Positions 22,661 through 37,018 of a DNA stretch of 64,000 bases are shown here, piece after piece. Positions within the stretch are counted from its first letter, which is position 1; each line of letters begins with the position of its first letter. The position numbers and the translations under genes are program-made. The DNA is from Clostridia bacterium (lineage in GTDB: Bacteria; Bacillota; Clostridia; TANB77; UBA1234), in NCBI GenBank assembly GCA_017469565.1, contig JAFUGC010000003.1, forward strand, positions 13,656 through 77,655, read 5' to 3'. The notes below the pieces were generated by a model that was not told the origin of the DNA, made no database searches, and saw nothing but the letters and a program-made list of their open reading frames with translations.

Positions 22661-22670
22661 ACTACTTGAA

Positions 22671-22689
22671 AGGTCAAAGAAAGTCAAAG
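22671..22689 (+). promoter_or_regulatory. CtsR operator (heptad direct repeat AGGTCAAAGAAAGTCAAAG)
   Basis: Matches the CtsR box consensus (A/G)GTCAAA-N-A-N-(A/G)GTCAAA. The location downstream of the -10 gives classic autoregulation. Confidence 0.75.
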
Positions 22690-22716
22690 TTAAATTTAAA
22701 TCGAGGTGATTGGAAA

Positions 22717-23169
22717 ATGAGACTATCAGAATTAATTGAAGAATATATCAAAAGTATGATGGCAGATAGTGATGAGTTTGTAGAGTTTGGAAGAAATGAA
22801 TTGGCAGAATATTTTCACTGTGTACCATCGCAAATCAATTATGTCATTAGCACACGTTTTAGTCCTGAAAGAGGCTATTATGTAGAAAGCAGAAGGGGTG
22901 GTGGCGGAAACGTCAAAATCAAAAGAATTGATATCACAAAGGATACTTATATTATGCACCTTGTCAATTCTTTAGATAAGAGTTTATCTCAGCAAGAAGC
23001 GGAAATAATGATTCATAATATGATTGATTATCAGGTGATTGATGAGAAGACGGGAAAGCTTTTGAAAGTGGCAACCAATGATAAGGTGCTAGGGCTGCCA
23101 AAGGAATATAGGGATGATGTGAGAACAAGAATTTTTAAGAATATGATTATTAATTTAATCAGTGAGTGA
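22717..23169 (+). CDS. ctsR: Class III stress-gene repressor CtsR
   Basis: MRLSELIEEYIK...SRRGGGGNVKI glycine-rich loop motif; RBS GAGGTGAT. Confidence 0.85.
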   Translation: MRLSELIEEYIKSMMADSDEFVEFGRNELAEYFHCVPSQINYVISTRFSPERGYYVESRRGGGGNVKIKRIDITKDTYIMHLVNSLDKSLSQQEAEIMIHNMIDYQVIDEKTGKLLKVATNDKVLGLPKEYRDDVRTRIFKNMIINLISE

Positions 23170-23204
23170 GGAATGGGCCTGTGCCTAAAAAGGAGGTAAT
23201 TTTT

Positions 23205-23780
23205 ATGAAATGTCAAAATTGTGGAGAAAATGAAGCAAATGTAAGATATACACAGATTATTAATGGAAAAAAAGAGGAAATTTTTGTTTGTGATAAGTGT
23301 GCCAGTCAGTTAAAGTTGGATATGAATTTTAAGTTTGGATTTGATGATGTCTTTTCATCATTTTTTGGTGAGCCAGCCTTTTTTAAACCTCTTGAAATTT
23401 CTGATGGTTTAGTGTGTGATGTGTGTGGCACCAAGTATGATGACTTTGCAAGTACTGGAATGTTAGGATGTGAAAATTGTTATCGTGTTTTTAGCAGGAG
23501 GCTTGATAACGTCTTGAAGAAACTTCATGGTAATAATAGACATATTGAGGAGGGAGAAAGACAAGTTCCAATGTCATCAGAAATCAGTGCTTCGAAAGAA
23601 AAGAAAAAGAGTTTAGAAGAGGTGATTGCGGAGTTAAAAGAAAAACTAGCAAGTTGTATCAAGAGTGAAGATTATGAGCAGGCCGCGATTATCCGTGACA
23701 AGATAAAAAAATTGGAGAAAAAGTTAAATGATAAAAAATTCAATACCAAAAAATTGGAAGATAGAGAAAGAGGTGAGTGA
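23205..23780 (+). CDS. mcsA: Protein-arginine kinase activator McsA (zinc fingers + UVR domain)
   Basis: CQNCGENEA/CDKC, CDVCG/CENC zinc motifs and UVR motif EDYEQAAIIRDKIKKLE; RBS AAAAAGGAGG. Confidence 0.85.
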   Translation: MKCQNCGENEANVRYTQIINGKKEEIFVCDKCASQLKLDMNFKFGFDDVFSSFFGEPAFFKPLEISDGLVCDVCGTKYDDFASTGMLGCENCYRVFSRRLDNVLKKLHGNNRHIEEGERQVPMSSEISASKEKKKSLEEVIAELKEKLASCIKSEDYEQAAIIRDKIKKLEKKLNDKKFNTKKLEDRERGE

Positions 23781-23782
23781 TC

Positions 23783-24784
23783 ATGAGTTGGTATTTGGAA
23801 AATGGGCCTGAATCAGATGTTGTAGTGAGTACTAGGGTAAGGCTTGCAAGAAATATTGTGGGTCACAAGTTTGTACCAAAGGCAAATGGGAAAGAGTTAG
23901 AAGAAGTAATGAATTTATTCAAGGAGAATAAAATAATTCCTGAACTTAGATTTGTAAGGCTTTGTGAATTGGATGAATTGATGCAAAATAGTTTGGTGGA
24001 GAAACATATCATTAGTAGAGATATTTTAAATGAGGAAAATGCAGCACTCTTACTCAATAATGATGAAGATGTTTGTGTGATGATTAATGAAGAGGATCAT
24101 GTTCGTATTCAAGCAATGAAGCCGGGATTGGATTTAAATGGTGCTTTAAAAATGGCCAAAGAAATTGATAGCAAGATTGCAAGCAAAGTGGAATATGCTT
24201 ATAGTGATATTTATGGATATTTGACAGCATGCCCAACCAATGTTGGTACTGGTCTTAGGGCTTCGGTTATGCTTCATTTGCCTGCACTTAGGATTACGGG
24301 TAGACTTGGCAAGATTATGGATGTGATTAGCAAGGTAAACCTAAATGTTCGTGGTGTTTATGGTGAGGGCACAGAAGCAATCGGAGATATGTATCAGGTT
24401 TCTAATAAGGCAAGTTTAGGAATGACAAATGAGGAAATAATTGTTAATGTAAAAGCAATTTCAAAGAAAATTATTGAACAAGAGAGAAAGGCTCGTGAAT
24501 ATTTAAAAGACAGAGGAATTGATTTTGAAGATAAGGTTTATCGTGATTATGGGATATTGACATCGGCAAGAAAGATTTCTTCCGATGAATGTGCTAAATT
24601 GATTTCCATTGTAAAACTTGGTGTGGATATGGGAATTATTAAAGAAATTGATTCTAAAAAAGTGAACGAAATATCAATCATGACAAAGCCTGCCACATTG
24701 CAAAAGTGCTATAAGGAGGCATTGGAACCAAATGAGAGAGATGTGAAAAGGGCAGAGTTAATTAAGAATATTATGAAAGAGTGA
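23783..24784 (+). CDS. mcsB: Protein arginine kinase McsB
   Basis: Phosphagen-kinase-like catalytic domain; conserved operon position. Confidence 0.9.
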   Translation: MSWYLENGPESDVVVSTRVRLARNIVGHKFVPKANGKELEEVMNLFKENKIIPELRFVRLCELDELMQNSLVEKHIISRDILNEENAALLLNNDEDVCVMINEEDHVRIQAMKPGLDLNGALKMAKEIDSKIASKVEYAYSDIYGYLTACPTNVGTGLRASVMLHLPALRITGRLGKIMDVISKVNLNVRGVYGEGTEAIGDMYQVSNKASLGMTNEEIIVNVKAISKKIIEQERKAREYLKDRGIDFEDKVYRDYGILTSARKISSDECAKLISIVKLGVDMGIIKEIDSKKVNEISIMTKPATLQKCYKEALEPNERDVKRAELIKNIMKE

Positions 24785-24798
24785 GAAAGGAGAATTTT

Positions 24799-27228
24799 AT
24801 GGCAATGATGTATAAGTTTACAAATAGGGCGGAAAAAGCAATTGCGCTTGCCCAAGAGGCTGCAGCGGAACTTGGACATAATTATGTGGGGACAGAGCAT
24901 TTGCTTTGTGGCTTGCTTCGTGAGGGAAGTGGTCTGGCATACAGAGTGCTTACAGACCAAGGAATTACGGACGAGAAAGTAATGAATTTAATTGAAGAGT
25001 TAATTGGAAGAAATGATTCTTTGACAGAGATGCCAACCGGTTTTACACCAAGAACAAAGCGTGTTTTTGAGATTAGCTTTATGGAAGCGAAAAAAATTAA
25101 TAATAATTATATTGGAACGGAGCACTTGTTACTTGGCATTATGAAGGAGGGTGATAGTGTTGCGTCAAGGATTATTCTGGAATTAGGGGTGGATATTCAG
25201 AAATTATTTTCTGACTTAGTAAAAACATTAAATGATGAAAATAGTGGAGGGGCCACCACATCGCATAAGAAACAATCATATCATCAAACGCCAACCTTAA
25301 ATCAGTTTGGTAAGGATTTGACTTCTGATGCTACTTCTGGAAAGCTTGACCCTATTATCGGAAGAGATGATGAAATTGAAAGAATCATTCAGATTTTGAG
25401 TAGAAGAACCAAAAATAATCCATGTTTAATTGGTGAGCCGGGTGTTGGTAAAACAGCAGTGGTAGAAGGACTTGCAGAGAGAATTGTGGAGGGAAATGTT
25501 CCAGAAAATCTAAGGAATAAAAGGGTAGTAACACTGGATGTTTCTAGCATGGTGGCAGGAGCAAAATATCGAGGTGATTTTGAGGAAAGGCTTAAGAAGT
25601 GTTTGCAAGAAATTAAAAAGAGTGGAAATGTGGTTTTGTTTATTGATGAAATTCATACCATTGTTGGTGCCGGTGCAGCAGAAGGTGCCATAGATGCTGC
25701 AAACATTTTAAAACCACTTCTTGCAAGGGCAGAGATTCAAGTAATTGGTGCTACTACATTAAATGAGTATCGAAAATATATTGAGAAAGATGCGGCACTA
25801 GAAAGAAGGTTTCAACCAGTGATTGTGGGTGAGCCAACTACAGAGGAAACAGTTCAAATTTTGAGAGGAATCAGAGATAAATATGAGGCACATCATAAAG
25901 TAAAAATCACAGATGAGGCGATTAAGGCGGCTGTGGATTTATCGTCTAGATATATTAATGATAGGTATTTGCCAGATAAGGCGATTGATATCATGGATGA
26001 GGCAGCATCTAGGGTGAAACTTGCATCGCTTACGGCTCCTAAAGAAGTCAAGAAGATGGAGGAGAAAATTGAGGAAACGGTGAAAGAAAAAGAGGATGCC
26101 ATTAATACGCAAGATTTTGAGAAAGCCGCAAAATTAAGGGATAGAGAACAAAAGGAAAGAGCAAAACTGGAAAAAATGAAGGTGGAATGGGAACAGAAAA
26201 ATCAAATTGCTACAACAGAGGTGTCAGAAAATGAGATTGCTGAAGTAGTTGCAAAATGGACGGGAATCCCAGTGAGTAAAATATCTGAGGCAGAAACAAC
26301 AAGACTTAAGAATTTGGAGCAAGAACTTCATAAGAGGGTAATTGGTCAAGATGATGCCATTGTCGCAGTGAGTAAGGCTGTAAGAAGAGGAAGAGTGGGA
26401 CTTAAGGATCCTAAAAGACCAATTGGTTCCTTTATTTTCTTAGGCCCTACAGGTGTTGGAAAGACAGAGACCTGTAAAGCACTTGCAGAATGTTTATTTG
26501 GTGATGAAAATGCGATGATTCGAATCGACATGTCTGAATACATGGAGAAACATACCGTGGCAAAACTGATTGGCTCACCTCCAGGATATGTTGGTTATGA
26601 AGAGGGCGGCCAATTGACAGAAAAAGTGAGAAGAAAACCTTATTCTGTAATTTTATTTGATGAGATTGAGAAAGCGCATCCGGATGTATTTAATATATTA
26701 CTTCAAATATTGGAGGATGGTAGACTAACAGATTCTCAGGGGAGAACGGTAGATTTTAAAAATACGGTTATCATCATGACATCGAATGTGGGAGCAAGAA
26801 ATATCACAGATCATAAGGCAATTGGATTTAATAGTGCAGAAGAAAAGAAGAAAAACTATGAACAAATTAAGAGCGATGTGATGAGTGAACTTAAGAAGGA
26901 ATTTAGACCAGAGTTCTTGAATAGAGTGGATGAGATGATTGTATTTAAACAACTAGATGAAACTGAAATTGAAAAGATCGTGGACATTATGGTTAAGAAT
27001 TCTATTGCAAGACTTCAGGATAGAGAGATTAAAGTGTCTGTTACAAATTCTATGAAGAAACATATTGCGAAAAAAGGATTTGACCCGTTATATGGTGCGC
27101 GTCCGCTAAGAAGGGCAATCCAATCTTTGGTGGAGGATAAGCTGGCAGAAGGTATCTTGGATGGAAAGATTAAAGATGGAGAGAGTGTAACGTTGGATTT
27201 TGCAAAAGATGAGGTTGTGATTAAGTAA
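24799..27228 (+). CDS. clpC: ATP-dependent Clp protease ATP-binding subunit ClpC
   Basis: Clp N-repeats, two AAA+ modules (GEPGVGKT, GPTGVGKT), UVR linker; RBS AAAGGAG. Confidence 0.9.
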   Translation: MAMMYKFTNRAEKAIALAQEAAAELGHNYVGTEHLLCGLLREGSGLAYRVLTDQGITDEKVMNLIEELIGRNDSLTEMPTGFTPRTKRVFEISFMEAKKINNNYIGTEHLLLGIMKEGDSVASRIILELGVDIQKLFSDLVKTLNDENSGGATTSHKKQSYHQTPTLNQFGKDLTSDATSGKLDPIIGRDDEIERIIQILSRRTKNNPCLIGEPGVGKTAVVEGLAERIVEGNVPENLRNKRVVTLDVSSMVAGAKYRGDFEERLKKCLQEIKKSGNVVLFIDEIHTIVGAGAAEGAIDAANILKPLLARAEIQVIGATTLNEYRKYIEKDAALERRFQPVIVGEPTTEETVQILRGIRDKYEAHHKVKITDEAIKAAVDLSSRYINDRYLPDKAIDIMDEAASRVKLASLTAPKEVKKMEEKIEETVKEKEDAINTQDFEKAAKLRDREQKERAKLEKMKVEWEQKNQIATTEVSENEIAEVVAKWTGIPVSKISEAETTRLKNLEQELHKRVIGQDDAIVAVSKAVRRGRVGLKDPKRPIGSFIFLGPTGVGKTETCKALAECLFGDENAMIRIDMSEYMEKHTVAKLIGSPPGYVGYEEGGQLTEKVRRKPYSVILFDEIEKAHPDVFNILLQILEDGRLTDSQGRTVDFKNTVIIMTSNVGARNITDHKAIGFNSAEEKKKNYEQIKSDVMSELKKEFRPEFLNRVDEMIVFKQLDETEIEKIVDIMVKNSIARLQDREIKVSVTNSMKKHIAKKGFDPLYGARPLRRAIQSLVEDKLAEGILDGKIKDGESVTLDFAKDEVVIK

Positions 27229-27349: not shown

Positions 27350-27958
27350 GTGATCACCGAAAAGAATAAAGAAAATATCATAAAAGGATTAGAGGCTGAG
27401 CTTGAAAATGGCACATTTTATCAAGTGAATCAGTGGGATGTGCTTGCAAACACTGACACGGATTTTTATCATGATGTTTTTGATTTATCTACATCAAAAA
27501 GTTATGCTACCCCTGAGTTTAAGGGTGTTGGGCTGTTTAGACCGCTTGTAAGTAATGAGTTTAATCCTTTAAATAGCACGGTTTATAATTATAAGGCAAG
27601 CTATGAGGCACCGGTACATGGAATGGCGTTTACTGGTAAGAATGGAGAGTATGTGGAGTCACATTATCTTTCCGGATTGAATTTAGGAGCAAGCATCACC
27701 AATGAGTTTGGTACAGTTACAGTGGAAGCGCCGGTTACTCATATAGATATGAAAATTAATAATATGGGTACGGATGATAATGTTCAAGTAAATATGGCTG
27801 ATATTCTACCAAATACCCAAACTGCTAATGTGATAGATTTTGCATCGGTTCCACAAGAACTTGCACTTGCCAAAAGAAATCATTGGAAAGATATTCTATT
27901 TATGGATGTGGATATTATAGGCAGTGTAAAGAAACTTTGGAAAAATATTTCTGTATAG
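27350..27958 (+). CDS. Hypothetical protein (202 aa)
   Basis: GTG start after AGAGGGGG; no recognisable domain. Confidence 0.45.
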   Translation: MITEKNKENIIKGLEAELENGTFYQVNQWDVLANTDTDFYHDVFDLSTSKSYATPEFKGVGLFRPLVSNEFNPLNSTVYNYKASYEAPVHGMAFTGKNGEYVESHYLSGLNLGASITNEFGTVTVEAPVTHIDMKINNMGTDDNVQVNMADILPNTQTANVIDFASVPQELALAKRNHWKDILFMDVDIIGSVKKLWKNISV

Positions 27959-27983: not shown

Positions 27984-28018
27984 AAGTGTGTAAGTGATTT
28001 TACTTACACACTTTTTTT
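27984..28018 (+). terminator. Intrinsic terminator upstream of the PK-like/PurA-like operon
   Basis: aagtgtgtaagt-gatttt-acttacacactt followed by TTTTTTT. Confidence 0.6.
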
Positions 28019-28168
28019 GCTTTTGATGCTTTCGGAAGGTGTCCCCAAAAACATTTTTGAAATTTGTTGCTTTTTATGTTAATCCCTGATAAAATGAATC
28101 CGCAATTGAATTGGTTTTGGGTAGTCTTTGTTTTTTGTTAAATGAAGAATGAAAAAGGAGGAATGTTT

Positions 28169-29093
28169 TTTGAAACGGGATTGTAGACTTATTGCAACGC
28201 TACCTTCATTGAGTAATTTGAAAAAGGTGCAAGAGGTTTTTGAGAGTGATTGTGTAGATGAAGTAAGGTTTAATACGGGAGTGCATGTGCCTTTTGCGGC
28301 GGAAGAAGCGCTGGATATTTTACAAAGGTTGTCACTGAAGTATGATAAGAAACTTTGGATTGATGTGAAGGGCAGGCAGCTTAGGATTAGCAAGTGGGCG
28401 GATCCTTTGTATTCTTGCATTGAACTCAATCACCATGTGGAGGTTTTATATCCGGCAGAGGTTTGTTTTAGAAATGGTGATCGGGTGAGAATTGCCCATA
28501 TCAAAGATGGAAATAAACTTTTTGTGGAACCGCTGCCCAAAGAGGCGCTTGGTGCAGGGCAGTCTGTGAATATTATTGGGAGAGATGTTGAGATTGATGG
28601 TTACTTAACGGAGAAAGATAAAGAGTACTTAACTGCTTGCGCTAAGCTGGGTATGCCTTGGATTATGGCTTCTTTTGTAGAAGAGTTCTTGGATTTCATG
28701 GAGATTTTGACGCTCCAACCGAATGCTCAAATTATGGCTAAAATTGAGTCACTCAAGGGAATGGAGCTTGTGACAAGGCATCCATCTGTACTTATGGAGA
28801 AGTTTAACATTTTTTCTCTAATGGCTGCGAGAGATGACCTGTATATTCAGACAGGTGAAAATTGCAGCATGTTAAAGCATTTGAAAGCAATTGTTGATGT
28901 GGACAGTGGGGCAGTTTGTGCATCCCGGATTTTCCCTTCTTTGGAGAGAAGGCAAACGCCTGAGTTTGCAGATTATGCGGACTTGGAACTCATGTATAGC
29001 ATGGGCTATCGGAGGTTCATGCTGTGTGATAACATATGCAATTACCATTTTGAAAAAGCAATCAAAGCATGGAAGGAGTTTCAGCATGGATAG
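28169..29093 (+). CDS. Pyruvate-kinase-like TIM-barrel protein (A-domain only; B-lid and C-terminal domains absent)
   Basis: TTG start is 7 nt after AAGGAGG. Motifs RLIATLPS, VRFNTGVH, LWIDVKGRQLRIS, IMASFVE, AKIESLKG, MAARDDLY align with pyruvate kinase KIVCTIGP, RLNFSHG, LLDTKGPEIRT, MVSFVR, AKIENQEG, MVARGDLG. ~308 aa instead of ~470+. Confidence 0.6.
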
Positions 29094-30549
29094 TTATGTA
29101 TTATGTGGAATGCAGTTCGGTGATGAAGGAAAAGGTACGTTTGTTGACTATATGTCACATAGAGAAGACGCGGATGCCGTTGTCCGGTATAACGGAGGTT
29201 CACAGGCATCGCATACGGTGGTGACTCCAAGTGGAACGCTTCATAAGTTTAGTCAGTTAGGTTCCGGAATGTTTTTGGAAAATTGTCACACATATATTAC
29301 GGAAAACACTGTGGTGAACCTGGATAATCTTATGGTGGAGTTGAAGGTTTTTTCGGAAAAAACTGGTATTTCTGTTTCTGAACTCATCAATCGGATTCAC
29401 ATTCATGAGAATTGTTTTGTGGTAACGCCTTATCACAAGCTGCTGAACAAGCTAAGAGAATTGTCATTGGGAGAAAACCGCAGAGGAACGGTTGGCACTG
29501 GTGTGAGTGAGGTCCGGTATGTGTTGGAAGAGTCTCAAAATTTTCCGCTTGAGCCATCCTTAGGGGTTCAAGTAAAAGATATTTTTGATTCTCGTGGTAT
29601 TCGTCCACTCCTTGCTGGTTTCATGGGGCTTCATGAGTATGTGAGTGCGTTCTATCAGGAAAATCAGGAAGTGATTTGGAAAAATACTCCTGAGGAGATG
29701 AAAGAGGGTTTACAGAAAGAGATAGATTCTTTGCTTTCTGGACAAGTTTTTAATCTTACTAACATTTATAGAAGATACTTTAATACGGTACCACGAGAGT
29801 TTAACCTGAAAAGATGTATTTATAGTACTTATGAACAGTCTTTGCACGCAAACTGTAAGAAGGTGATTTTTGAGGGGTCACAGGGACTTTTGATTGATGG
29901 TAAATATGGCATCAAGCCGAATACCACTTTTCTGGATACCACCAATCAGTTTGCTTTGAGGATAAGTAGGTACACGGACCATGTGACAAAGGTTGGTATC
30001 GTGAAGGCTTTTAGCTCTCGGCATGGACCAGGTATATTTCCCACGGAATCAGAGGAAGTGAGCAGTAAGATTCAAGACCCAAATCAGGAGGAATCTTTCT
30101 GGAATGGTAAGATTCGTTTTGGGTGGCTGGATGTGGTGCTGCTCCGGTATGCACAGCACATCAACCAGGTGGATGAGCTTTATTTGTCTTCCTTGGACCT
30201 GCTGGATGATTTTGAGGAACTCAAAATTTGTGTTGGTTATATATACGATGGCAAGGTAGATGAAGAATTCAATCGGACTTTCGAATATGTTGATATGTTG
30301 GACGGTAGGAAGTATATTGATGATATTGTGATGCCCAGTGACAGGCTGGGAGAGTACTTGAAACTTTGCGTTCCGGATTACATGTGCATCAGAGGCTGGA
30401 AGAAGGATATTTCTCAGGTGACTGATCAGGAGGAACTGCCAGTTCGGTGTAGAAATTACATTGGCTGGCTGGGACGTCTTATGAATCTTCCTGTTACGGT
30501 GGTGTCTGTGGGACCTACTCGGGAAAACAAGATACGAATGGATTCTTAG
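29086..30549 (+). CDS. Adenylosuccinate synthetase (PurA) family paralog, divergent
   Basis: ATG 29086 overlaps the upstream stop by 8 nt. GDEGKGT P-loop, VVRYNGGSQASHTV, RRGTVGTGVSE and FEGSQGLLIDGKYG correspond to PurA GDEGKGK, GGxNAGHT, GTTxRGIGPAY and EGAQGxxLDIDxGTYP. 487 aa. Confidence 0.7.
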   Translation: MDSYVLCGMQFGDEGKGTFVDYMSHREDADAVVRYNGGSQASHTVVTPSGTLHKFSQLGSGMFLENCHTYITENTVVNLDNLMVELKVFSEKTGISVSELINRIHIHENCFVVTPYHKLLNKLRELSLGENRRGTVGTGVSEVRYVLEESQNFPLEPSLGVQVKDIFDSRGIRPLLAGFMGLHEYVSAFYQENQEVIWKNTPEEMKEGLQKEIDSLLSGQVFNLTNIYRRYFNTVPREFNLKRCIYSTYEQSLHANCKKVIFEGSQGLLIDGKYGIKPNTTFLDTTNQFALRISRYTDHVTKVGIVKAFSSRHGPGIFPTESEEVSSKIQDPNQEESFWNGKIRFGWLDVVLLRYAQHINQVDELYLSSLDLLDDFEELKICVGYIYDGKVDEEFNRTFEYVDMLDGRKYIDDIVMPSDRLGEYLKLCVPDYMCIRGWKKDISQVTDQEELPVRCRNYIGWLGRLMNLPVTVVSVGPTRENKIRMDS

Positions 30550-30572: not shown

Positions 30573-31175
30573 ATGAAAGATAAGCTTTATGAAGAGATTG
30601 ACCGGCGTATTACCACTGGTCAAAAGGTGAATGTGCTGATTGCTGGGATGACCTGTTCCGGAAAGAGCACTCTTGCCAGAGAAATTCAGGAGCATTATGT
30701 GTTTGGAAAGCATCCTAAACAGGTGTCTATTATTTCTCAGGATTGTTACTTTAAAAATTTAGGATTGATTCCTAGAAATAAAGGCGGCTATTTGATGGAT
30801 TCTCTTTATGCCTTTCATGCAGATGAGTACCGGGCTCATGCACAGTATCTGACTCAACATGGAACGGTGAGAGTGCCTCAGTATGACATTGCCAGAAATA
30901 AAAGGACGGCGGAATACACTAAAATTGAAAATGGAGATATTAATATCTTTGAGGGTTTGCATAGCATCCGGATATTAAGTGGACTGTGGCATAATGTAAA
31001 AGTCTATTTGGATACTGATGTAGAAACCTGCCTGGAAAGAAGGATTGCAAGGGATACGTCTTTATATGACGTGCCGGAGGAGCGCATTCGTGAGTACTGG
31101 GCGGAGTGTATTATGCCCTTAAGTAGAGAGTTCATTTTCCCGCAAAAGGAAATGGCGGATTGGATTATCAGCTAA
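30573..31175 (+). CDS. P-loop kinase of the uridine kinase/phosphoribulokinase family
   Basis: Walker A VLIAGMTCSGKST and an ISQDCYFK motif as in uridine kinase; 200 aa. Confidence 0.6.
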   Translation: MKDKLYEEIDRRITTGQKVNVLIAGMTCSGKSTLAREIQEHYVFGKHPKQVSIISQDCYFKNLGLIPRNKGGYLMDSLYAFHADEYRAHAQYLTQHGTVRVPQYDIARNKRTAEYTKIENGDINIFEGLHSIRILSGLWHNVKVYLDTDVETCLERRIARDTSLYDVPEERIREYWAECIMPLSREFIFPQKEMADWIIS

Positions 31176-31189
31176 AGGGGGAAATGCTT

Positions 31190-32236
31190 ATGACGGTTAA
31201 GGAAATTTATGAAAGGCTGCTGAGGGCCAAACGGCCGGTGGATTTTTTTGGTGAGGCTACCACGGAAGAGGAGCTGAAAAGGTTCTATAAGGATTTTGCC
31301 AAAAAGGTTCATCCGGATTTAGTGCCTGACTGTGACAGGTATCTTGCCGGTGAGGCGTTTTCTGTGCTGAATAGACTTTATCATTTGGGTCTTGCTGAGT
31401 TCCAACAGGGCATTTATGGCGTAATTGACCAGGTGCAACTGTATTCGCATCAGTCGCCGCTGTTTGAAATCACGGCTGGAGGAAAGCGGTATCAGTTTTT
31501 TGAGAATGTGTTTGAAGGCGAGGTTGCCTATCTTTTTAAGGGGAAGTCGGCCGATGATGATATTGTGTATCTGAAAGTAGCGATTGACCCAGCAGACAAT
31601 GAACTGATTGACACGGAGTATGATGTGCTTTCCACGCTTAGGCATCAGTCTTTTCCATATGTGGAACAGAAAATTCAGGTGAATGATACCAGGGCCATTT
31701 TGATGCGAGAGGTGAAGGGCATTACTATGCTGGAGCTTTTGGAGCAATATCCGCATGGTGTGCCTGCAGAGCATGTGATGTGGATGCTGGAGCGCCTGCT
31801 GAGTGCTGTGGGGTATCTGCATGCTAACTTTGTGGTGCATGGGAATATCAAGCCGGAAAATATCATCATTAACAAGGAAAATCATAATGTTTCCTTGGTT
31901 GGTTTTTCTTTCTGTATTCCTAAGGCGAATACCCCAGAGGCAAAGTACAAGATTCAAAATGATAATTATTCTGCTCCTGAGGTAAGTGCGGATGCCACGG
32001 TTTATCCGGCATCGGATGTATATTCGGTTGGCAAAATTGCGATTGCGCTTTTAGGAGGTGCCGTTTCTTCTTCTGGAATGCCCATTTCCGTGAATGCGAA
32101 AGTGAGGGCGTTTATCCGGAAAATGGTGAATCCTTCTATGATGGATAGACCAGACGATGCCTGGAAACTCTGGACGGAGCTGATTGAGCTCAGAACGGAA
32201 GTTTTTGGAACTCAGCGGTTTCAAAAATTGGACTGA
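31190..32236 (+). CDS. J-domain (HPD) fused to a Hanks-type protein-kinase-like domain predicted to be catalytically inactive (pseudokinase)
   Basis: N-terminal ELKRFYKDFAKKVHPDL (HPD tripeptide present). Kinase-like YLKVAI (VAIK Lys), HGNIKPENIII (HRD Asp replaced by Asn), VGFSF (DFG Asp lost), SAPEV (APE). RBS GGGGGAA. Confidence 0.6.
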   Translation: MTVKEIYERLLRAKRPVDFFGEATTEEELKRFYKDFAKKVHPDLVPDCDRYLAGEAFSVLNRLYHLGLAEFQQGIYGVIDQVQLYSHQSPLFEITAGGKRYQFFENVFEGEVAYLFKGKSADDDIVYLKVAIDPADNELIDTEYDVLSTLRHQSFPYVEQKIQVNDTRAILMREVKGITMLELLEQYPHGVPAEHVMWMLERLLSAVGYLHANFVVHGNIKPENIIINKENHNVSLVGFSFCIPKANTPEAKYKIQNDNYSAPEVSADATVYPASDVYSVGKIAIALLGGAVSSSGMPISVNAKVRAFIRKMVNPSMMDRPDDAWKLWTELIELRTEVFGTQRFQKLD

Positions 32237-32292: not shown

Positions 32293-33243
32293 ATGGGTGG
32301 AAGCAGCTATGACCGGGATGTGTACAGTGGTAGCTCTAGTTCAGGCTGGGGTGCTAGTTCTTATTCAGCAATGAAGATGGGCAGTAGCACTTTGGATAGC
32401 TCCCTGAGGGCTAATGGTAAGATTCTGAAAAGTACAAGCAAGAATCCTATTATTGTGGTGCTGGATGTGACTGGCTCCAACATTGATTTTGCCAGATTGG
32501 TTTATGACAAGATGCCGATGTTTTATGGGCAGATTGAGCAGAAGGGGTATTTGGATGACTTTGATATTGCTTTTTGTGCGGTGGGTGATGCCTACACGGA
32601 TGATTATCCTTTGCAGATAGGTGATTTTGCAAAGGGGATTGCTTTGGACTCCCAACTGGAAAAGTTAGTGCTGGAGGGTGCTGGCGGAGGCCAGAGGAAG
32701 GAGTCTTACGAGCTTGCCGCTTATTATCTGTATAAGAATGCGGAGTTTCCACCGGGCAGTAAGCCTCTCATCTTCTTTATTGGAGATGAGGCACCTTATC
32801 CTAAGGTGAATGAGGTTCAGGCTCAGGAGTTTGGCATTGACTGCACTGAAGGTAATGTGGAGCCTTTTGAGCTTTTGCGGAAGAAGGTAAATGACAATGT
32901 CTTTATGCTCTTGAACAAGTATTGCAGTAGGAGTTTTGAAAGTGACATTACAGAGGCGTGGACCACGCGGTTGGCGCCAGAACATGTGATTAAGATTCAG
33001 GAGGAAAAGGCGATTGTGGACCTGATGCTGGGCATTATCTCCATGGTTTCGAATGCGAGAACGCTAGAGACTTATAAGGTGGATATGCTGGATAGAGGGC
33101 AGACACAGGAGCGGATTGCCGGTGTTTCGGAATCGCTTCAGAATTTTTCAAAGGTCACATCGATTGTGCCTGTGAAGGTGTCTGGGATAATTCCCAAGGC
33201 TTCCGGTGGGAAGCAAAGCACTCAGAAGGGCAAACGCCTGTAA
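32293..33243 (+). CDS. von Willebrand factor A (vWA) domain protein with a Gly/Ser-rich N-terminal low-complexity region
   Basis: IIVVLDVTGSN (MIDAS-like D-x-T-x-S), downstream FFIGDEAPY; RBS AGGAGGAAAT. Confidence 0.65.
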   Translation: MGGSSYDRDVYSGSSSSGWGASSYSAMKMGSSTLDSSLRANGKILKSTSKNPIIVVLDVTGSNIDFARLVYDKMPMFYGQIEQKGYLDDFDIAFCAVGDAYTDDYPLQIGDFAKGIALDSQLEKLVLEGAGGGQRKESYELAAYYLYKNAEFPPGSKPLIFFIGDEAPYPKVNEVQAQEFGIDCTEGNVEPFELLRKKVNDNVFMLLNKYCSRSFESDITEAWTTRLAPEHVIKIQEEKAIVDLMLGIISMVSNARTLETYKVDMLDRGQTQERIAGVSESLQNFSKVTSIVPVKVSGIIPKASGGKQSTQKGKRL

Positions 33244-33253
33244 GATGAATTTT

Positions 33254-33288
33254 GGTGGTACACTTATTTTAGTGTACCACCTTTTTTG
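33254..33288 (+). terminator. Intrinsic terminator after the vWA gene
   Basis: ggtggtacact-tatttt-agtgtaccacc followed by TTTTTT. Confidence 0.6.
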
Positions 33289-33329: not shown

Positions 33330-33358
33330 TTGACATAATGATGGGCAAAATATATAAT
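33330..33358 (+). promoter_or_regulatory. Consensus sigma-A promoter TTGACA-17-TATAAT for the downstream acidic protein
   Basis: Perfect hexamers with 17-nt spacer, ~50 nt upstream of the RBS. Confidence 0.55.
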
Positions 33359-33410: not shown

Positions 33411-34832
33411 ATGGGTATTCGAAACTGGTTAAACCGCAGGCGTGAGATGGAAGACGGACTGGATGATGCGGCTGTTACTAGTTCAACTGGTTCAACCACT
33501 TCAACCGCTTCAACCGTGAATGACACTTCTTGTCATGTGAAGGTTCCCGAGAAGGTGGAGAATCTTCCGCAGATAGAGCGTGAGGCACTTTACCGGTGGA
33601 GCAAAGTGTTTTTGGGAGAAGTGGCGAGTGCAGATTATACCAAGCGGTTTGTGAAGTCCCTGAATATCAGCCCGTATCATATGGGAGATACTTATTGGAA
33701 TGTTAAACAGGAAGAAATGGAAAGGATTGGCTGTCTGACGGAGTGCTACCGGGCGTGCATCAGCAGAGTCTTTGCAGAGAATAATTTTCTGGCCGGCCCT
33801 GAGATGCTGGAAGAACTCATACGGGTTGTCACGGCAAATCTGGTAAGTCGCATGCTTCAGGAAACAGATATCACTTATGATTATGATCTGTCTGAGTATG
33901 AGAAAGAGATTTTTCAGTTTGGTTCAGAGCTTTTGAAGGCGGTTTATTGGGTGGCCACCGAGAATGTGGTGGATTTTGTTAGTCTTTACGAGAAAATCAA
34001 TCACGGTATTGATTTCAGGCTGAAAAGCATGTATGGGCCGGAGATTACATACCGGTATACTTACCTTATTCCGGCGGAGTATCTGTTTGAACTTCCTGAT
34101 TTTGTTTATGAAAAGAGATTGGGCAGTATTCAAGACAGGATGGAGGCTGTTCATGATGTGGAAGCCATCATTAGTGGAGTTCTTTCTCGGGATAATGATA
34201 TTGGTGATGGCGCAGTATACCTTTCCAAGCTTAAGGAATTCATGATAAAAGAAAAGGAGTTTCTGACACTGGATTTTGAGCATATTCTGTTCCAGTATTT
34301 TGAAGAGTTTAAAGAGGAGAACGAATTAACGTCCTATAACTTTTATGCTTATGGGATACATGACCTGATTGCTGCTATTCCGCAATATTTCCCGGAAATG
34401 ATTGTGGAGTCTTTTGAGTATCAGCTGGCAATGATGCAGCGTGTTTATGTATGCCAAGATGAAGTGGAGATGTTTGAAGAGGATCTGGTGGATCTGTATG
34501 AACGCATCGTCATTTATCGGAATTATAGAGCGGAAGATTTTCAGGTAACTGATTCTGATTCCTGGAAAGCAACTATTAGTAGTTTTTTTGAACTGGGGCT
34601 TTCGGGGTATGCACTGACCAGAATTTCGGATTTGCTCACGGATGGTTTAGGCGTGAGCAGAGATGAAGTGGAAGCGTACATTGAGAGTCTGACCCGGGAT
34701 TATTTGGATGATTGCTACTGGATTGGTACGGATGAGGAGAGCCTCATTCATATGATTCGGCTGCTGTCTAATCCTGTTGTTTACCGTGTGATTGAAGAAG
34801 AGAAGCCGGCCATCATTGACTGCTTCTGGTAA
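33411..34832 (+). CDS. Hypothetical acidic protein (473 aa) with a Ser/Thr-rich N-terminal tract (VTSSTGSTTSTASTVNDTS)
   Basis: RBS AAGGAGG lies 7 nt upstream; no recognisable domain. Confidence 0.5.
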   Translation: MGIRNWLNRRREMEDGLDDAAVTSSTGSTTSTASTVNDTSCHVKVPEKVENLPQIEREALYRWSKVFLGEVASADYTKRFVKSLNISPYHMGDTYWNVKQEEMERIGCLTECYRACISRVFAENNFLAGPEMLEELIRVVTANLVSRMLQETDITYDYDLSEYEKEIFQFGSELLKAVYWVATENVVDFVSLYEKINHGIDFRLKSMYGPEITYRYTYLIPAEYLFELPDFVYEKRLGSIQDRMEAVHDVEAIISGVLSRDNDIGDGAVYLSKLKEFMIKEKEFLTLDFEHILFQYFEEFKEENELTSYNFYAYGIHDLIAAIPQYFPEMIVESFEYQLAMMQRVYVCQDEVEMFEEDLVDLYERIVIYRNYRAEDFQVTDSDSWKATISSFFELGLSGYALTRISDLLTDGLGVSRDEVEAYIESLTRDYLDDCYWIGTDEESLIHMIRLLSNPVVYRVIEEEKPAIIDCFW

Positions 34833-34840
34833 GAATTTTG

Positions 34841-34878
34841 TGGTGGAGGAAAACTTGTTTCCTCCGCCATTTTTTTGT
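34841..34878 (+). terminator. Intrinsic terminator closing the accessory cluster
   Basis: tggtggagga-aaacttgtt-tcctccgcca followed by TTTTTTT. Confidence 0.6.
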
Positions 34879-34958
34879 TCGCCCTAATTTTTTTGGAAAA
34901 AGGCTTGACAAGTGGGAAAAATCGTTGTAAACTATTTGAGGTTTACAGGAGGTGGCAT

Positions 34959-35264
34959 ATGGAGAAGAATATTCGTGTTAGTATGCTCACAGAAATGTAT
35001 GGCAAATTGCTTACAGATAAGCAGTTTGATGTTGTTGATTTGTATTATAACAATAACCTATCACTTAGTGAAATTGCGGAAGAGCTTGGGATTACTCGTC
35101 AAGGGGTGCGCAAGATTTTGGTAAGTGCTGAGAATCATTTGTTTGAAATAGAAGAAAAATTGGGTTTCTTAGAGCAAAAGTTGCAGCAAAGAAAAGTTTT
35201 GAGTGAAGTGATTCGTCAAACAGAAGATAAATGGATAAAAGAAAAATTAACCAATTTATTATAA
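34959..35264 (+). CDS. ylxM: YlxM/p13-family putative DNA-binding protein (UPF0122), upstream of ffh
   Basis: MEKNIRVSMLTEMYGKLLTDKQFDVVDLYYNNNLSLSEIAEELGITRQGV HTH; ATG after AGGAGGTGG; conserved ylxM-ffh synteny. Confidence 0.8.
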   Translation: MEKNIRVSMLTEMYGKLLTDKQFDVVDLYYNNNLSLSEIAEELGITRQGVRKILVSAENHLFEIEEKLGFLEQKLQQRKVLSEVIRQTEDKWIKEKLTNLL

Positions 35265-35283
35265 AGATAAAGGAGTTTCGAGA

Positions 35284-36711
35284 ATGGCTTTTGAAAGTTT
35301 AAGTGAAAAACTTCAAGGAGTGATGAATAAATTAAGAGGAAAGGCAAGGATTACGGAGGATGACATCAAAGAGGTTTCAAGAGAGGTAAAGCTTGCACTT
35401 TTAGAGGCAGATGTTAACTATAAGATTGTCAAAGATTTTACCGCTAAGATTAGTGAAAAGGCGTTAGGACAAGATGTCTTAAAAAGCTTAACACCTGGCC
35501 AGCAGGTTATCAAGATTGTGCATGATGAGCTTGTGGATTTGCTTGGAAAAGAGGAGGTTCCTCTTAATATTTCTGCGAATCCGCCTACTATCATCATGAT
35601 GGCAGGTCTTCAGGGTTCTGGTAAAACTACCATGGCTGCTAAGCTTGCTAATATGCTTAGAAAGAAAGGAAAGTCTCCGCTTTTGGTAGCGTGTGATATT
35701 TATAGACCGGCAGCAATTGACCAGTTGCAGGTACTTGGAAAACAGTTAAATATTCCGGTGTTTGCAGATAAGGAGTCAAAAGATGTCATTGATATTTCTG
35801 GAAGAGCTTTGAAAGAGGCAAATTCCAAGTTAAATGATGTGGTAATTGTAGATACTGCAGGTAGGCTTCATATTGATGAAGAACTGATGGATGAGTTAAA
35901 AAGATTAAAGGCTTTTTTAAAACCGCATGAGATTTTGCTTGTAGTAGATTCCATGACGGGACAAGATGCCGTTACGGTGGCACAGAGTTTTGATGAGCAG
36001 CTTGGCATTGACAGTGTGGCACTTACCAAATTGGATGGTGATACTCGTGGCGGTGCGGCACTTTCTGTTAAGGCGGTTACTGGTAAGCCTATCAAGTTTT
36101 CTGGTACGGGTGAAAAGATGAATGATATTGAGGTATTTCATCCAGACAGAATGGCAACAAGAATCCTTGGCATGGGTGATGTACTAACGCTGATTGAAAA
36201 AGCGGAAGAATCGTTTGATATGGAAGCTGCGGAAAAACTTGAGAAAAAGCTTAGAAAGCAAGAGTTCACTTTGCAGGATTATCTAGATCAGTTAAAGCAA
36301 ATTAAGAAGATGGGGTCAATTAAATCTATTTTAGGAATGATTGGCATTGATCCGCAGACCATTGAACAGGCAAAGGTGGATGAGAAGCAGTTTGTGAGGG
36401 CTGAGGCAATTATTCAATCCATGACTATTAAAGAACGTGAAGACCCAGATATTCTAAATGGTAAAAGAAGAAGAAGAATCGCTGATGGCGCTGGTACCAC
36501 GGTGCAAGAGGTGAATAAATTTATCAAACAGTATACAGATACTAAGATGATGATGAAGAGCATGATGAGTGGTAAGGGACCAATGAAGGGTCTCATGAAA
36601 AAGGTCATGGGAGAGGCTAGTAAGCTGGATGCAGATAATATCTCGGAAGAGGACATCAAGAAGATGACCAATATGAATAGCTTAAAAGACTTAAGAAAGT
36701 TTATGAAATAG
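35284..36711 (+). CDS. ffh: Signal recognition particle protein Ffh
   Basis: N, G (GLQGSGKTT, DTAGR) and Met-rich M domains. Confidence 0.95.
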   Translation: MAFESLSEKLQGVMNKLRGKARITEDDIKEVSREVKLALLEADVNYKIVKDFTAKISEKALGQDVLKSLTPGQQVIKIVHDELVDLLGKEEVPLNISANPPTIIMMAGLQGSGKTTMAAKLANMLRKKGKSPLLVACDIYRPAAIDQLQVLGKQLNIPVFADKESKDVIDISGRALKEANSKLNDVVIVDTAGRLHIDEELMDELKRLKAFLKPHEILLVVDSMTGQDAVTVAQSFDEQLGIDSVALTKLDGDTRGGAALSVKAVTGKPIKFSGTGEKMNDIEVFHPDRMATRILGMGDVLTLIEKAEESFDMEAAEKLEKKLRKQEFTLQDYLDQLKQIKKMGSIKSILGMIGIDPQTIEQAKVDEKQFVRAEAIIQSMTIKEREDPDILNGKRRRRIADGAGTTVQEVNKFIKQYTDTKMMMKSMMSGKGPMKGLMKKVMGEASKLDADNISEEDIKKMTNMNSLKDLRKFMK

Positions 36712-36746
36712 AAAAATGAAATTTCAGTTGAAGGAGGTGAAAACGC

Positions 36747-36983
36747 ATGGTAAAGATTAGACTTAGAAGAGATGGTGCTAAAAAAGCTCCTTATTATAAA
36801 GTTGTTGTAGCTGATTCTAGATTCCCAAGAGATGGTAGATTTATTGAGGAAATCGGGGTTTATGATCCAATGAAGGAACCAGCTGTGATCAAGATTGATA
36901 CAGATAAGTATGAAACTTGGATAAAGAATGGAGCAAGACCAACAGACACAGTAAAAAAATTATTCGACAAAGTTTCTAACTAA
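36747..36983 (+). CDS. rpsP: 30S ribosomal protein S16
   Basis: [25 protein letters not shown]. Confidence 0.95.
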
Positions 36984-37018
36984 GTAGTCTGACTAAGTAG
37001 AAAGGAATGATACTAAAA

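Follow-up and report, generated by a model that had tools for sequence, protein, structure and literature searches.

What reaction is carried out by a protein that has kept the fold of adenylosuccinate synthetase (PurA) but is encoded in no purine context? This question is raised by an open reading frame (ORF) on the + strand of a 64,000-nucleotide stretch from a Clostridia bacterium (assembly GCA_017469565.1, contig JAFUGC010000003.1, positions 13,656 to 77,655), which was analyzed whole and is referred to here as the window. The ORF stands second in a set of five genes, encoding in order a mini pyruvate kinase, the PurA-like protein, a Udk-like kinase, a predicted J-domain pseudokinase, and a von Willebrand factor A (vWA) protein. 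The gene is intact, and its enzyme belongs to a PurA-family clade of its own, separate from housekeeping PurA and from PurZ. We infer, with a probability of roughly 0.5, that its product is a guanosine triphosphate (GTP)-driven 6-oxopurine-nucleotide ligase that uses an amine other than aspartate, is obligately partnered with the vWA protein, and is supported by the kinase-like enzymes. The fold and the chemistry are already known; what is new here is the substrate site and the widespread gene module to which it belongs.

A PurA-family clade apart from housekeeping PurA and PurZ

The PurA-like ORF (29,086-30,549, + strand) is an open frame of 487 amino acids, with an ATG start and GGAAGGAG just 5' of the ATG. 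The Pfam family Adenylsucc_synt (PF00709) covers it at profile positions 1-415 of 416 (E = 8e-80, 269 bits), solved PurA structures match the protein at E values of 1e-46 to 1e-29, and the public annotation is "adenylosuccinate synthetase". Based on the PF00709 match, the residue pattern, and the tree described below, the protein is predicted to be a GTP-dependent ligase of a vWA-linked clade. An earlier interpretation of the window, made without database searches (the sequence-only reading), had quoted the motifs GDEGKGT, GGSQASHT, TVGTGVSE, and EGSQGLLIDGKYG, all of which were found in the ORF. Its statement that the core PurA motifs are retained holds for their presence, but three of the four bear clade-diagnostic substitutions (N38Q in GGSQASHT; T129V and R131T in TVGTGVSE). 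The excess of about 55 amino acids over typical PurA that it had reported was borne out by comparison with E. coli PurA (431/432 amino acids), the surplus lying in a variable helical region and near the C-terminus.

Both PurA equivalog models scored well below their cutoffs, with 234.8 bits for NF002223 (cutoff 402) and 213.4 bits for TIGR00184 (cutoff 395.6), while the PurZ model NF038379 reached 51 bits against a cutoff of 300 and matched the N-terminal third only. In a neighbor-joining tree, all vWA-linked enzymes formed a single clade, with canonical PurA and PurZ outside of it. The replacement of Asp13 by Ser is given as the hallmark of PurZ, present in 100% of phage PurZ, in a recent PurZ phylogeny (PMC12884076), which groups sequences such as these under "other PurA homologs". 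The window protein keeps Asp13, reading GDEGKG where phiVC8 PurZ reads GSTGKG. Moreover, a family scan found no datZ/mazZ/dpoZ-type neighbors, the neighboring genes instead belonging to the PK, PRK, Pkinase, and vWA families. There was no second purA or purB in the 64-kb window, and no PurB-type lyase at this locus or at the related cassette loci.

Housekeeping PurA was rejected on the equivalog scores, the substrate residues, and the tree, and PurZ on the retention of Asp13, the model score, the neighbors, and the tree position. That the protein is nonetheless an ordinary or backup adenylosuccinate synthetase acting on inosine monophosphate (IMP), aspartate, and GTP, or a PurZ-type enzyme for the 2-aminoadenine precursor, would be in keeping with the full-length PF00709 match, the public name, and a PHROG label of "2-aminooxy adenylosuccinate synthetase". 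However, the protein falls below every PurA equivalog cutoff and far short of the PurZ model, all of its aspartate ligands (R131, T300, T301, R303, and R305) are replaced, it lacks the Asp13 to Ser hallmark (PMC12884076) and the PurZ-associated neighbors, and it belongs to a separate clade, making this explanation highly improbable. The sequence-only proposal of a diverged PurA paralog outside purine biosynthesis thus agrees with both the equivalog score (235 bits against a cutoff of 402) and the phylogeny, which places the protein outside housekeeping PurA in a clade apart from canonical PurA and PurZ. Its suggested kinship with PurZ does not survive the same comparison, given the absent Asp13 to Ser change, the NF038379 score, and the separate branching of PurZ, and the nucleoside-antibiotic pathway that it had also raised finds neither a biosynthetic cluster nor a PurB-type lyase nearby.

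We aligned the PurA-like protein and 120 database homologs (45-65% identity, all ~485 amino acids, exclusively metagenome sequences or metagenome-assembled genomes [MAGs]) to E. coli PurA, whose numbering is used here. Residues G12, D13, K16, G17, D21, H41, Q224, T239, D333, S414, and G416 were kept in essentially all of the homologs; they make up the GTP site, the catalytic base (Asp13) and acid (His41), and the contact to the 6-oxo group. With this machinery conserved, the enzyme probably still carries out the first half-reaction of PurA, in which GTP is used to phosphorylate the 6-oxygen of a 6-oxopurine nucleotide. The substrate-contact residues, which the sequence-only reading had proposed to compare, are not all conserved. 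Family-wide replacements were N38Q, G40S, T129V, R131T, V273 to an invariant His, T300 to F or Y, T301W, G302N, R303G, R305I, and K331S. At the L-aspartate ligand sites R131, T300, T301, R303, and R305, the window protein has T, F, W, G, and I, respectively, which predominate in ~78-99% of the homologs, and loss of the aspartate ligands recurs in distant bacterial and phage members of the clade. Among the ligands of the IMP 5'-phosphate, Thr239 is unchanged, and Gln and Val take the places of N38 and T129. Position 143 has no conserved Arg aligned to it, but an insertion makes the alignment unreliable there; new arginines at 132 and 133 are present, and these family-specific residues could compensate for Arg143.

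The roles ascribed to these residues follow a contact table for H. pylori AdSS (PMC11571797) and the E. coli structures. In that table, D12, N37, T121, T230, V264, R294, and R135* contact IMP, and R294 and R296 contact sulfate (PMC11571797); D12, N37, T121, T230, V264, R294, R135*, and R296 are equivalent to E. coli D13, N38, T129, T239, V273, R303, R143*, and R305. By these equivalents, N38, T129, T239, and R143* bind the IMP 5'-phosphate, V273 and R303 contact the ribose hydroxyls, and R303 and R305 hold an anion at the position of the aspartate carboxylate. Judged from the residue pattern, the enzyme has lost the basic/hydroxyl pocket for the two carboxylates of aspartate, and its phosphate/ribose pocket has changed in part. 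The first of these changes, which the sequence-only reading had overlooked, makes it unlikely that the enzyme ligates aspartate to alternative nucleotides, as that reading had suggested from other family members. The clade as a whole can be recognized by a signature consisting of Gln38, Arg-His-Gly (RHG) at position 273, and aromatic-Asn/Gln-Gly in place of Thr301-Gly302-Arg303, which the window protein carries as GGSQASH, SRHG, and FWNG.

The vWA partner, the predicted pseudokinase, and the phage module

Relatives of the PurA-like protein are encoded on at least 529 viral contigs in IMG/VR, and neighborhoods were counted for the best 80 loci. The clade signature was present in 74 of these, a vWA gene adjoined the PurA-like gene in 70, and a J-domain kinase-fold gene was found in 52, while the mini pyruvate kinase and the Udk-like gene occurred in 2/80 and 1/80, respectively. 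Five intact PurA homologs in this set without RHG (four of them with the canonical GGxNA) had no vWA neighbor, and in the few cases of an RHG gene lacking a vWA neighbor, the gene lay at a contig end. The evolutionary core is the PurA-like gene plus the vWA gene, usually with the pseudokinase, and the module is mainly of phage type. The sequence-only reading, in considering only the coupling to the pyruvate kinase-like (PK-like) gene, had described a real overlap but missed this decisive context of vWA partner, J-domain pseudokinase, and phage module.

The module is found in ~200 genomes of Bixzunavirus (cluster C1, Bxz1-like) mycobacteriophages, annotated as a "serine/threonine kinase", a hypothetical protein, a small ORF, and a "PurA-like adenylosuccinate synthetase". 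Their PurA-like, kinase, and vWA proteins are assigned to PHROGs 1211, 3043, and 2971 (the last listed as unknown), respectively. The phage enzyme belongs to the same clade as the window protein (~30% identity; GGSQAGH, TRHG, and MWQG), and its neighbors are a J-domain kinase-fold protein with HGA for HRD and a vWA protein starting MGSGAWD. In contrast with the window operon, neither a mini pyruvate kinase nor a Udk-like kinase is encoded alongside in these phages, whose enzyme is shorter, at 442 amino acids, and has GDAGKG. PHROG 1211 and RefSeq entries for C1 mycobacteriophages (e.g., NC_031080 and NC_021349) also apply the PurZ label "2-aminooxy adenylosuccinate synthetase" to vWA-linked-clade proteins that keep Asp13, which is probably a spreading annotation error. 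In the literature searched, we found no reported function for the Bixzunavirus PurA-like, kinase, or vWA genes, and no paper describing the triad, its signature, or its function, only annotation lists.

In Rhizobium phage RHph_TM39, the vWA gene lies immediately upstream of the PurA-like gene, and in Vibrio phage phiKT1024, it lies upstream with one small ORF intervening; in both the Rhizobium phage and the Vibrio phage, the PurA-like copies are near nucleotide and nicotinamide adenine dinucleotide (NAD+) salvage genes. On one viral contig of 139 kb (IMGVR_UViG_3300025087_000037; locus L071, 2007-6299), the order is kinase-fold, vWA, mini pyruvate kinase, and PurA-like gene, the last two overlapping by 8 nucleotides, and the vWA N-terminus, MGGSSYDRPVY, resembles those of the clostridial cassettes. 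This locus may link the phage and bacterial versions of the module.

The vWA partner in the window (32,293-33,243, + strand) had no Pfam match and was recognized from its AlphaFold2 (AF2) model, for which Foldseek returned integrin I-domains and vWA domains. The protein falls in PHROG 2971. It contains a MIDAS-like D58-x-T-x-S62/D165 arrangement, a Ser-rich linker, and a C-terminal GKRL, and its N-terminal tail, MGGSSYDRDVYS, is predicted to be disordered, with a confidence score (pLDDT) below 50 for residues 1-19 compared to 84.6 for the whole model. The window protein begins with MGGSSYDRDVY, and all vWA partners examined, from Clostridia to mycobacteriophages, start with M-G-[G/S..]-x-x-[Y/W/F]-x-x-x-x-[Y/W]. 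Searching 1.84 billion proteins with a profile of the vWA partner recovered 1,595 cluster representatives; among representatives at no more than 50% identity, 93/148 start with MGG and 106/148 with MG, most of the others being apparent fragments, and ~64 of 66 full-length viral copies have the MG start. Many copies also end in G-[K/R]-R-[L/I].

In Mycobacterium phage MikeLiesIn, the annotated GTG start of gp263 (L034, 3671-4726) and its equivalents is probably 12 codons too early, since an internal ATG with AAGGAG upstream gives MGSGAWD, consistent with the MG[G/S] start of the family. Some vWA partners (L024, 6991-8556; L028, 6446-7873; L029, 6383-7873) carry an insertion of ~170-200 amino acids with a conserved DLDLHC...LDVDRN...ENIRW pattern, for which the L024 copy has a weak DUF2135 match (E = 0.15).

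The J-domain kinase-fold protein (31,190-32,236, + strand; Pfam Pkinase E = 6e-20, DnaJ E = 3e-4) combines a J domain (HPD) with a protein-kinase-fold domain. Compared to PknB, the beta3 Lys and the alphaC Glu are kept, but HRD is replaced by HGN or HGA in 15 of 15 members; the window protein has HGN, and its DFG Asp is Gly. From these substitutions, it is predicted to be a pseudokinase. Partners of this kind (vWA, J domain, and pseudokinase) are typical adaptor or scaffold proteins, which would suit a PurA-like protein that is not a ligase at all but a GTP/purine-nucleotide switch, GTPase, or sponge, acting as sensor or effector within a vWA/pseudokinase complex. Guanine alarmones, which bind PurA, would be one possible ligand, and the loss of the third-substrate site with retention of the nucleotide sites is also consistent with such a role. 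However, Asp13, His41, Lys16, and Gln224 are invariant even between very distantly related members, which points to chemistry at C6, and the remodeled pocket (RHG and aromatic-N/Q-G) is strongly conserved, as for a new ligand site rather than decay. We regard the non-ligase explanation as unlikely.

The five-gene operon and its distribution in bacteria

In this genome, the module is an operon inserted between clpC and ylxM-ffh. At its 5' edge is a bidirectional terminator-like hairpin (27,984-28,013; 13-bp stem followed by a T-run) that also closes an upstream orphan gene, and the 135-nucleotide operon leader (28,014-28,148) has no Rfam match, that is, no riboswitch or other RNA element. The 3' end is marked by an intrinsic-terminator-like hairpin (33,254-33,281, + strand) with an 11-bp stem containing 6 GC pairs, followed by a T-run. 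The mini pyruvate kinase gene (28,149-29,093, + strand) terminates with cag cat gga TAG, sharing the 8 nucleotides ATGGATAG with the PurA-like gene, and the Shine-Dalgarno sequence and the start/stop overlap together occupy 29,071-29,093. The overlap, which the sequence-only reading had already reported, can be read directly from the DNA and is kept in at least 20 of 22 related bacterial loci as well as at the viral locus L071, arguing for translational coupling of the PK-like and PurA-like genes. Public annotation places the start of the mini pyruvate kinase gene at 28,170, 7 codons downstream.

The mini pyruvate kinase has a Pfam PK match (E = 2e-10) and scores 40.8 bits against a cutoff of 306.4 for the pyruvate kinase model TIGR01064. 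Its AF2 model has a pLDDT of 92.1, and its best 50 Foldseek matches in the PDB are all pyruvate kinases (TM score ~0.7). As in pyruvate kinase, a beta-barrel B domain is inserted into the TIM barrel of the A domain, and the ligands for phosphoenolpyruvate (PEP), metal, and nucleotide phosphate are conserved; the catalytic set of PykF is retained at R32, N34, D66, K68, R73, K220, E222, and D246, with Ser in place of T278. The mini pyruvate kinase differs in its size (~300 amino acids), in a B domain shortened by ~25 residues, in lacking the C-terminal allosteric C domain, and in its translational coupling to the PurA-like gene. The third gene (30,573-31,175, + strand; Pfam PRK E = 4e-17) encodes a predicted nucleoside kinase of the Udk/PRK family whose base pocket has changed: it retains the P-loop, QDxYF, EG, and RRxxRD motifs, an invariant Asn replaces the His with which Udk reads the base, and the NCBIfam uridine kinase model scores 99 bits against a cutoff of 180.

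The five-gene order is conserved in ~20 species-level genomes, mostly uncultured gut or rumen Clostridia, with one Bacilli MAG and one Ignavibacteriales MAG, and a collection of genomes from 185,579 species contained 27 loci of the module. Here, the cassette sits between ctsR-mcsA-mcsB-clpC and ylxM-ffh-rpsP, with a GC content of 0.40-0.45 compared to ~0.36. Neither clpC nor ffh was found near the related five-gene loci, and in three related genomes, the cassette is at another housekeeping site, running from a glycosyltransferase cluster to rpiB-rpsT. These differing chromosomal sites imply that the cassette moves as a unit. No recognizable defense genes, integrases, or transposases flank it in the syntenic loci.

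A compact, self-contained, terminator-bounded cassette with raised GC, found at different chromosomal sites in different lineages and encoding a kinase fold that resembles the kinases of known defense systems, could be a bacterial anti-phage or stress cassette that, once triggered, would drain a nucleotide pool, convert it, or produce a toxic nucleotide analog, with the bacterial copies serving as immune genes and the phage copies as countermeasures or decoys. In contrast with this expectation, the syntenic loci are housekeeping neighborhoods, the kinase-fold protein lacks the catalytic Asp, and the module is found on at least 529 viral contigs compared to 27 loci among 185,579 species. PADLOC-DB 2.0 models gave only generic kinase-fold matches (MkoA, PD-T4-6, and PglW), and a single marginal match (E = 0.004) among the other four proteins, so four of the five have no PADLOC support and a known defense system was rejected. 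A defense role is, on balance, quite unlikely.

Genes for more divergent PurA-like proteins (23-32% identity) were found in Myxococcales, Melainabacteria, and Ruminococcus, and these have Gln38, RHG, and aromatic-Asn/Gln-Gly and lack Arg at 303/305. Most adjoin a vWA homolog, with the exception of two Myxococcales loci (L026 and L027), and the Myxococcales/Polyangiales and Melainabacteria loci that have the vWA gene also have a kinase-fold gene. In Ruminococcus sp. AM36-2AA, a cultured isolate (QTYB01000001.1; L033, 3689-12923), the vWA/PurA-like pair lies among genes for two metallophosphatases, an isochorismatase-family protein, a phosphoribosyl pyrophosphate (PRPP)-synthetase-like protein, a NAMPT-family protein, and an RlaP nucleotidyltransferase. 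The set is reminiscent of the genes with which phages reconstitute NAD+, and this region may represent a prophage or anti-defense island. In the MAG GCA_011262095.1, a complete cassette is present on each of two contigs (L043 and L045), in the same syntenic position; the PurA-like proteins (P0087 and P0045) share 55% and 62% identity with the window protein, respectively, and this bin probably mixes two strains or species.

The flanks of the cassette in the window comprise the heat-shock class III operon ctsR-mcsA-mcsB-clpC at 22,666-27,228 and ylxM-ffh-rpsP-khpA-rimM-trmD-rplS at 34,875-38,500. These genes all run in the + direction, and the GC skew is strongly positive, giving the appearance of a leading-strand housekeeping region in a low-GC Clostridia MAG. 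Between clpC and the cassette is the orphan gene closed by the 5' hairpin (27,350-27,958, + strand), encoding a 202-amino-acid protein with no family match. A second orphan, of 473 amino acids (33,411-34,832, + strand), lies between the cassette and ylxM within the raised-GC stretch; it has a sigma-70 promoter with 12/12 matches at 33,330-33,358, its own terminator at 34,840-34,870, and no Pfam, NCBIfam, PHROG, or PADLOC match. Both were rejected as cassette members because no homolog of either is located beside the cassette in the first 33 related loci (L001-L033), and the promoter and terminator of the second weigh further against its membership.

Candidate reactions and comparison with known systems

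In the reading that we favor, the PurA-like enzyme would use GTP to phosphorylate the 6-oxo group of a purine nucleotide, and an amine other than aspartate would then displace the phosphate at C6, the reaction taking place in complex with the vWA protein. From their folds and motifs, the mini pyruvate kinase would convert guanosine diphosphate (GDP) to GTP with PEP, and the Udk-like kinase would convert a nucleoside to the nucleoside monophosphate substrate, while the J-domain pseudokinase may serve as a noncatalytic scaffold recruiting Hsp70 (DnaK). Recycling of GTP by the mini pyruvate kinase is attractive because of its tight coupling to the PurA-like gene and because GDP inhibits PurA.

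There are two serious candidates for the amine, the N-terminal glycine of the vWA protein and ammonia or another small neutral amine. The leading candidate acceptor is the alpha-amine of Gly2 in the vWA tail, which would be exposed after removal of Met, although the tail might instead be a regulator that occupies the pocket. The glycine candidate would explain the strict vWA pairing and the invariant MGG. Taken to its full extent, it would make the enzyme a protein-modifying ligase in which the N-terminal glycine alpha-amine replaces aspartate, so that the partner comes to bear a base-linked (N6) purine nucleotide, with assembly on a scaffold formed by the Hsp70-recruiting J-domain pseudokinase. 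We offer this specific version tentatively, as a rather unlikely one.

Ammonia or a small amine, by comparison, would explain the pathway logic and the placement of phage copies among salvage genes, but not the vWA pairing. The enzyme could then be a one-step purine aminase that converts IMP to adenosine monophosphate (AMP) without PurB, in the salvage or restoration of adenine nucleotides. The Udk-like kinase, acting on inosine, and the mini pyruvate kinase would complete a three-enzyme route from nucleoside to adenosine triphosphate (ATP), with the vWA protein and pseudokinase only regulating, and in phages, the role would be to rebuild adenine-nucleotide pools. In keeping with this explanation, the former aspartate pocket is now made up of hydrophobic and amide side chains, together with an invariant His as a possible base, a PurB-type lyase is absent from every locus scanned, and PurA-like copies lie amid nucleotide/NAD+ salvage genes in the Rhizobium and Vibrio phages and beside PRPP-synthetase-like and NAMPT genes in Ruminococcus (L033). 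On the other hand, it leaves the strict vWA pairing and the invariant vWA N-terminus unexplained, most phage copies lack both kinase-like genes, and the assignment of inosine to the nucleoside kinase is presumptive. We consider the aminase explanation rather unlikely.

Several points also weigh against the favored ligase reading. We know of no precedent for a protein tail entering the active site in the PurA fold, and the active site of PurA closes over its ligands. The identity of the nucleotide substrate is uncertain, since contacts to the phosphate and the 2'-OH are likewise affected by N38Q, T129V, R303G, and the apparent absence of R143, and the conserved acidic residues of the vWA tail, D7 and D9, could simply be a MIDAS pseudo-ligand. 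Since the phage versions mostly lack the PK-like (2/80) and Udk-like (1/80) genes, the GTP-recycling and substrate-supply roles would be accessory. Lastly, no defense or counter-defense phenotype is known to us.

To our knowledge, the PurA-family fold is known for two reactions only, those of PurA and PurZ, both with aspartate. With the activation chemistry kept and the amine site rebuilt, a third reaction type is predicted for this fold. The role of the module could lie in the takeover or restoration of nucleotide pools, or in protein modification, and solving the reaction would give a function to three PHROG families and could uncover a new nucleotide-pool maneuver or protein modification in phage-host conflict. 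If the vWA protein does acquire an N6-linked purine nucleotide, many large phages and a few bacteria would be using a post-translational modification that has not been known before. The ~200 sequenced Bxz1-type mycobacteriophages are isolated, cultivable, and genetically tractable, and the clade extends to T4-like Rhizobium phages, a Vibrio phage, and the IMG/VR contigs, which include jumbo phages. Furthermore, the minimal pyruvate kinase and nucleoside kinase make the bacterial five-gene pathway self-contained and easy to reconstitute in vitro.

With canonical PurA (Enzyme Commission number 6.3.4.4; PF00709; E. coli 1ADE, H. pylori 6ZXQ/8QWA), the window protein shares the full-length fold, the GDEGKG P-loop, Asp13, His41, Gln224, Thr239, the guanine-specifying Asp333, and the SxGP motif. 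It differs in the aspartate-carboxylate and 2'-OH ligands (R131T, T300F, T301W, G302N, R303G, and R305I), in N38Q, T129V, the invariant His at V273, and K331S, in its additional ~55 amino acids and its equivalog score (235 compared to 402 bits), and in being encoded among vWA, pseudokinase, and kinase-like genes. PurZ and PurZ0 of Z-genome phages (NF038379) are likewise phage-borne PurA-family paralogs with altered substrate use. However, phiVC8 PurZ has Ser13 but retains Asn38, Val273, and the Arg residues of the aspartate loop, and PurZ is ~340 amino acids long and accompanied by datZ/mazZ/dpoZ, whereas the window protein has Asp13, RHG and W-N-G, and a vWA companion.

The module as a whole is reminiscent of the vWA adaptor systems (CbbO-CbbQ, NorD-NorQ, MoxR-vWA, and the TerY-P triad), in that a MIDAS-bearing vWA gene lies beside a presumed enzyme partner, with a kinase-fold protein and a chaperone link alongside. 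The TerY-P triad itself (vWA, PP2C, and Ser/Thr kinase) was rejected as an identification, as no phosphatase is present in the operon or related loci and the HRD Asp is absent. In contrast with these systems, the module described here has no AAA+ MoxR partner or PP2C phosphatase, its kinase fold lacks the catalytic Asp, its chaperone link is a J domain (Hsp70), and the N-terminal MGG tail of its vWA protein is unique.

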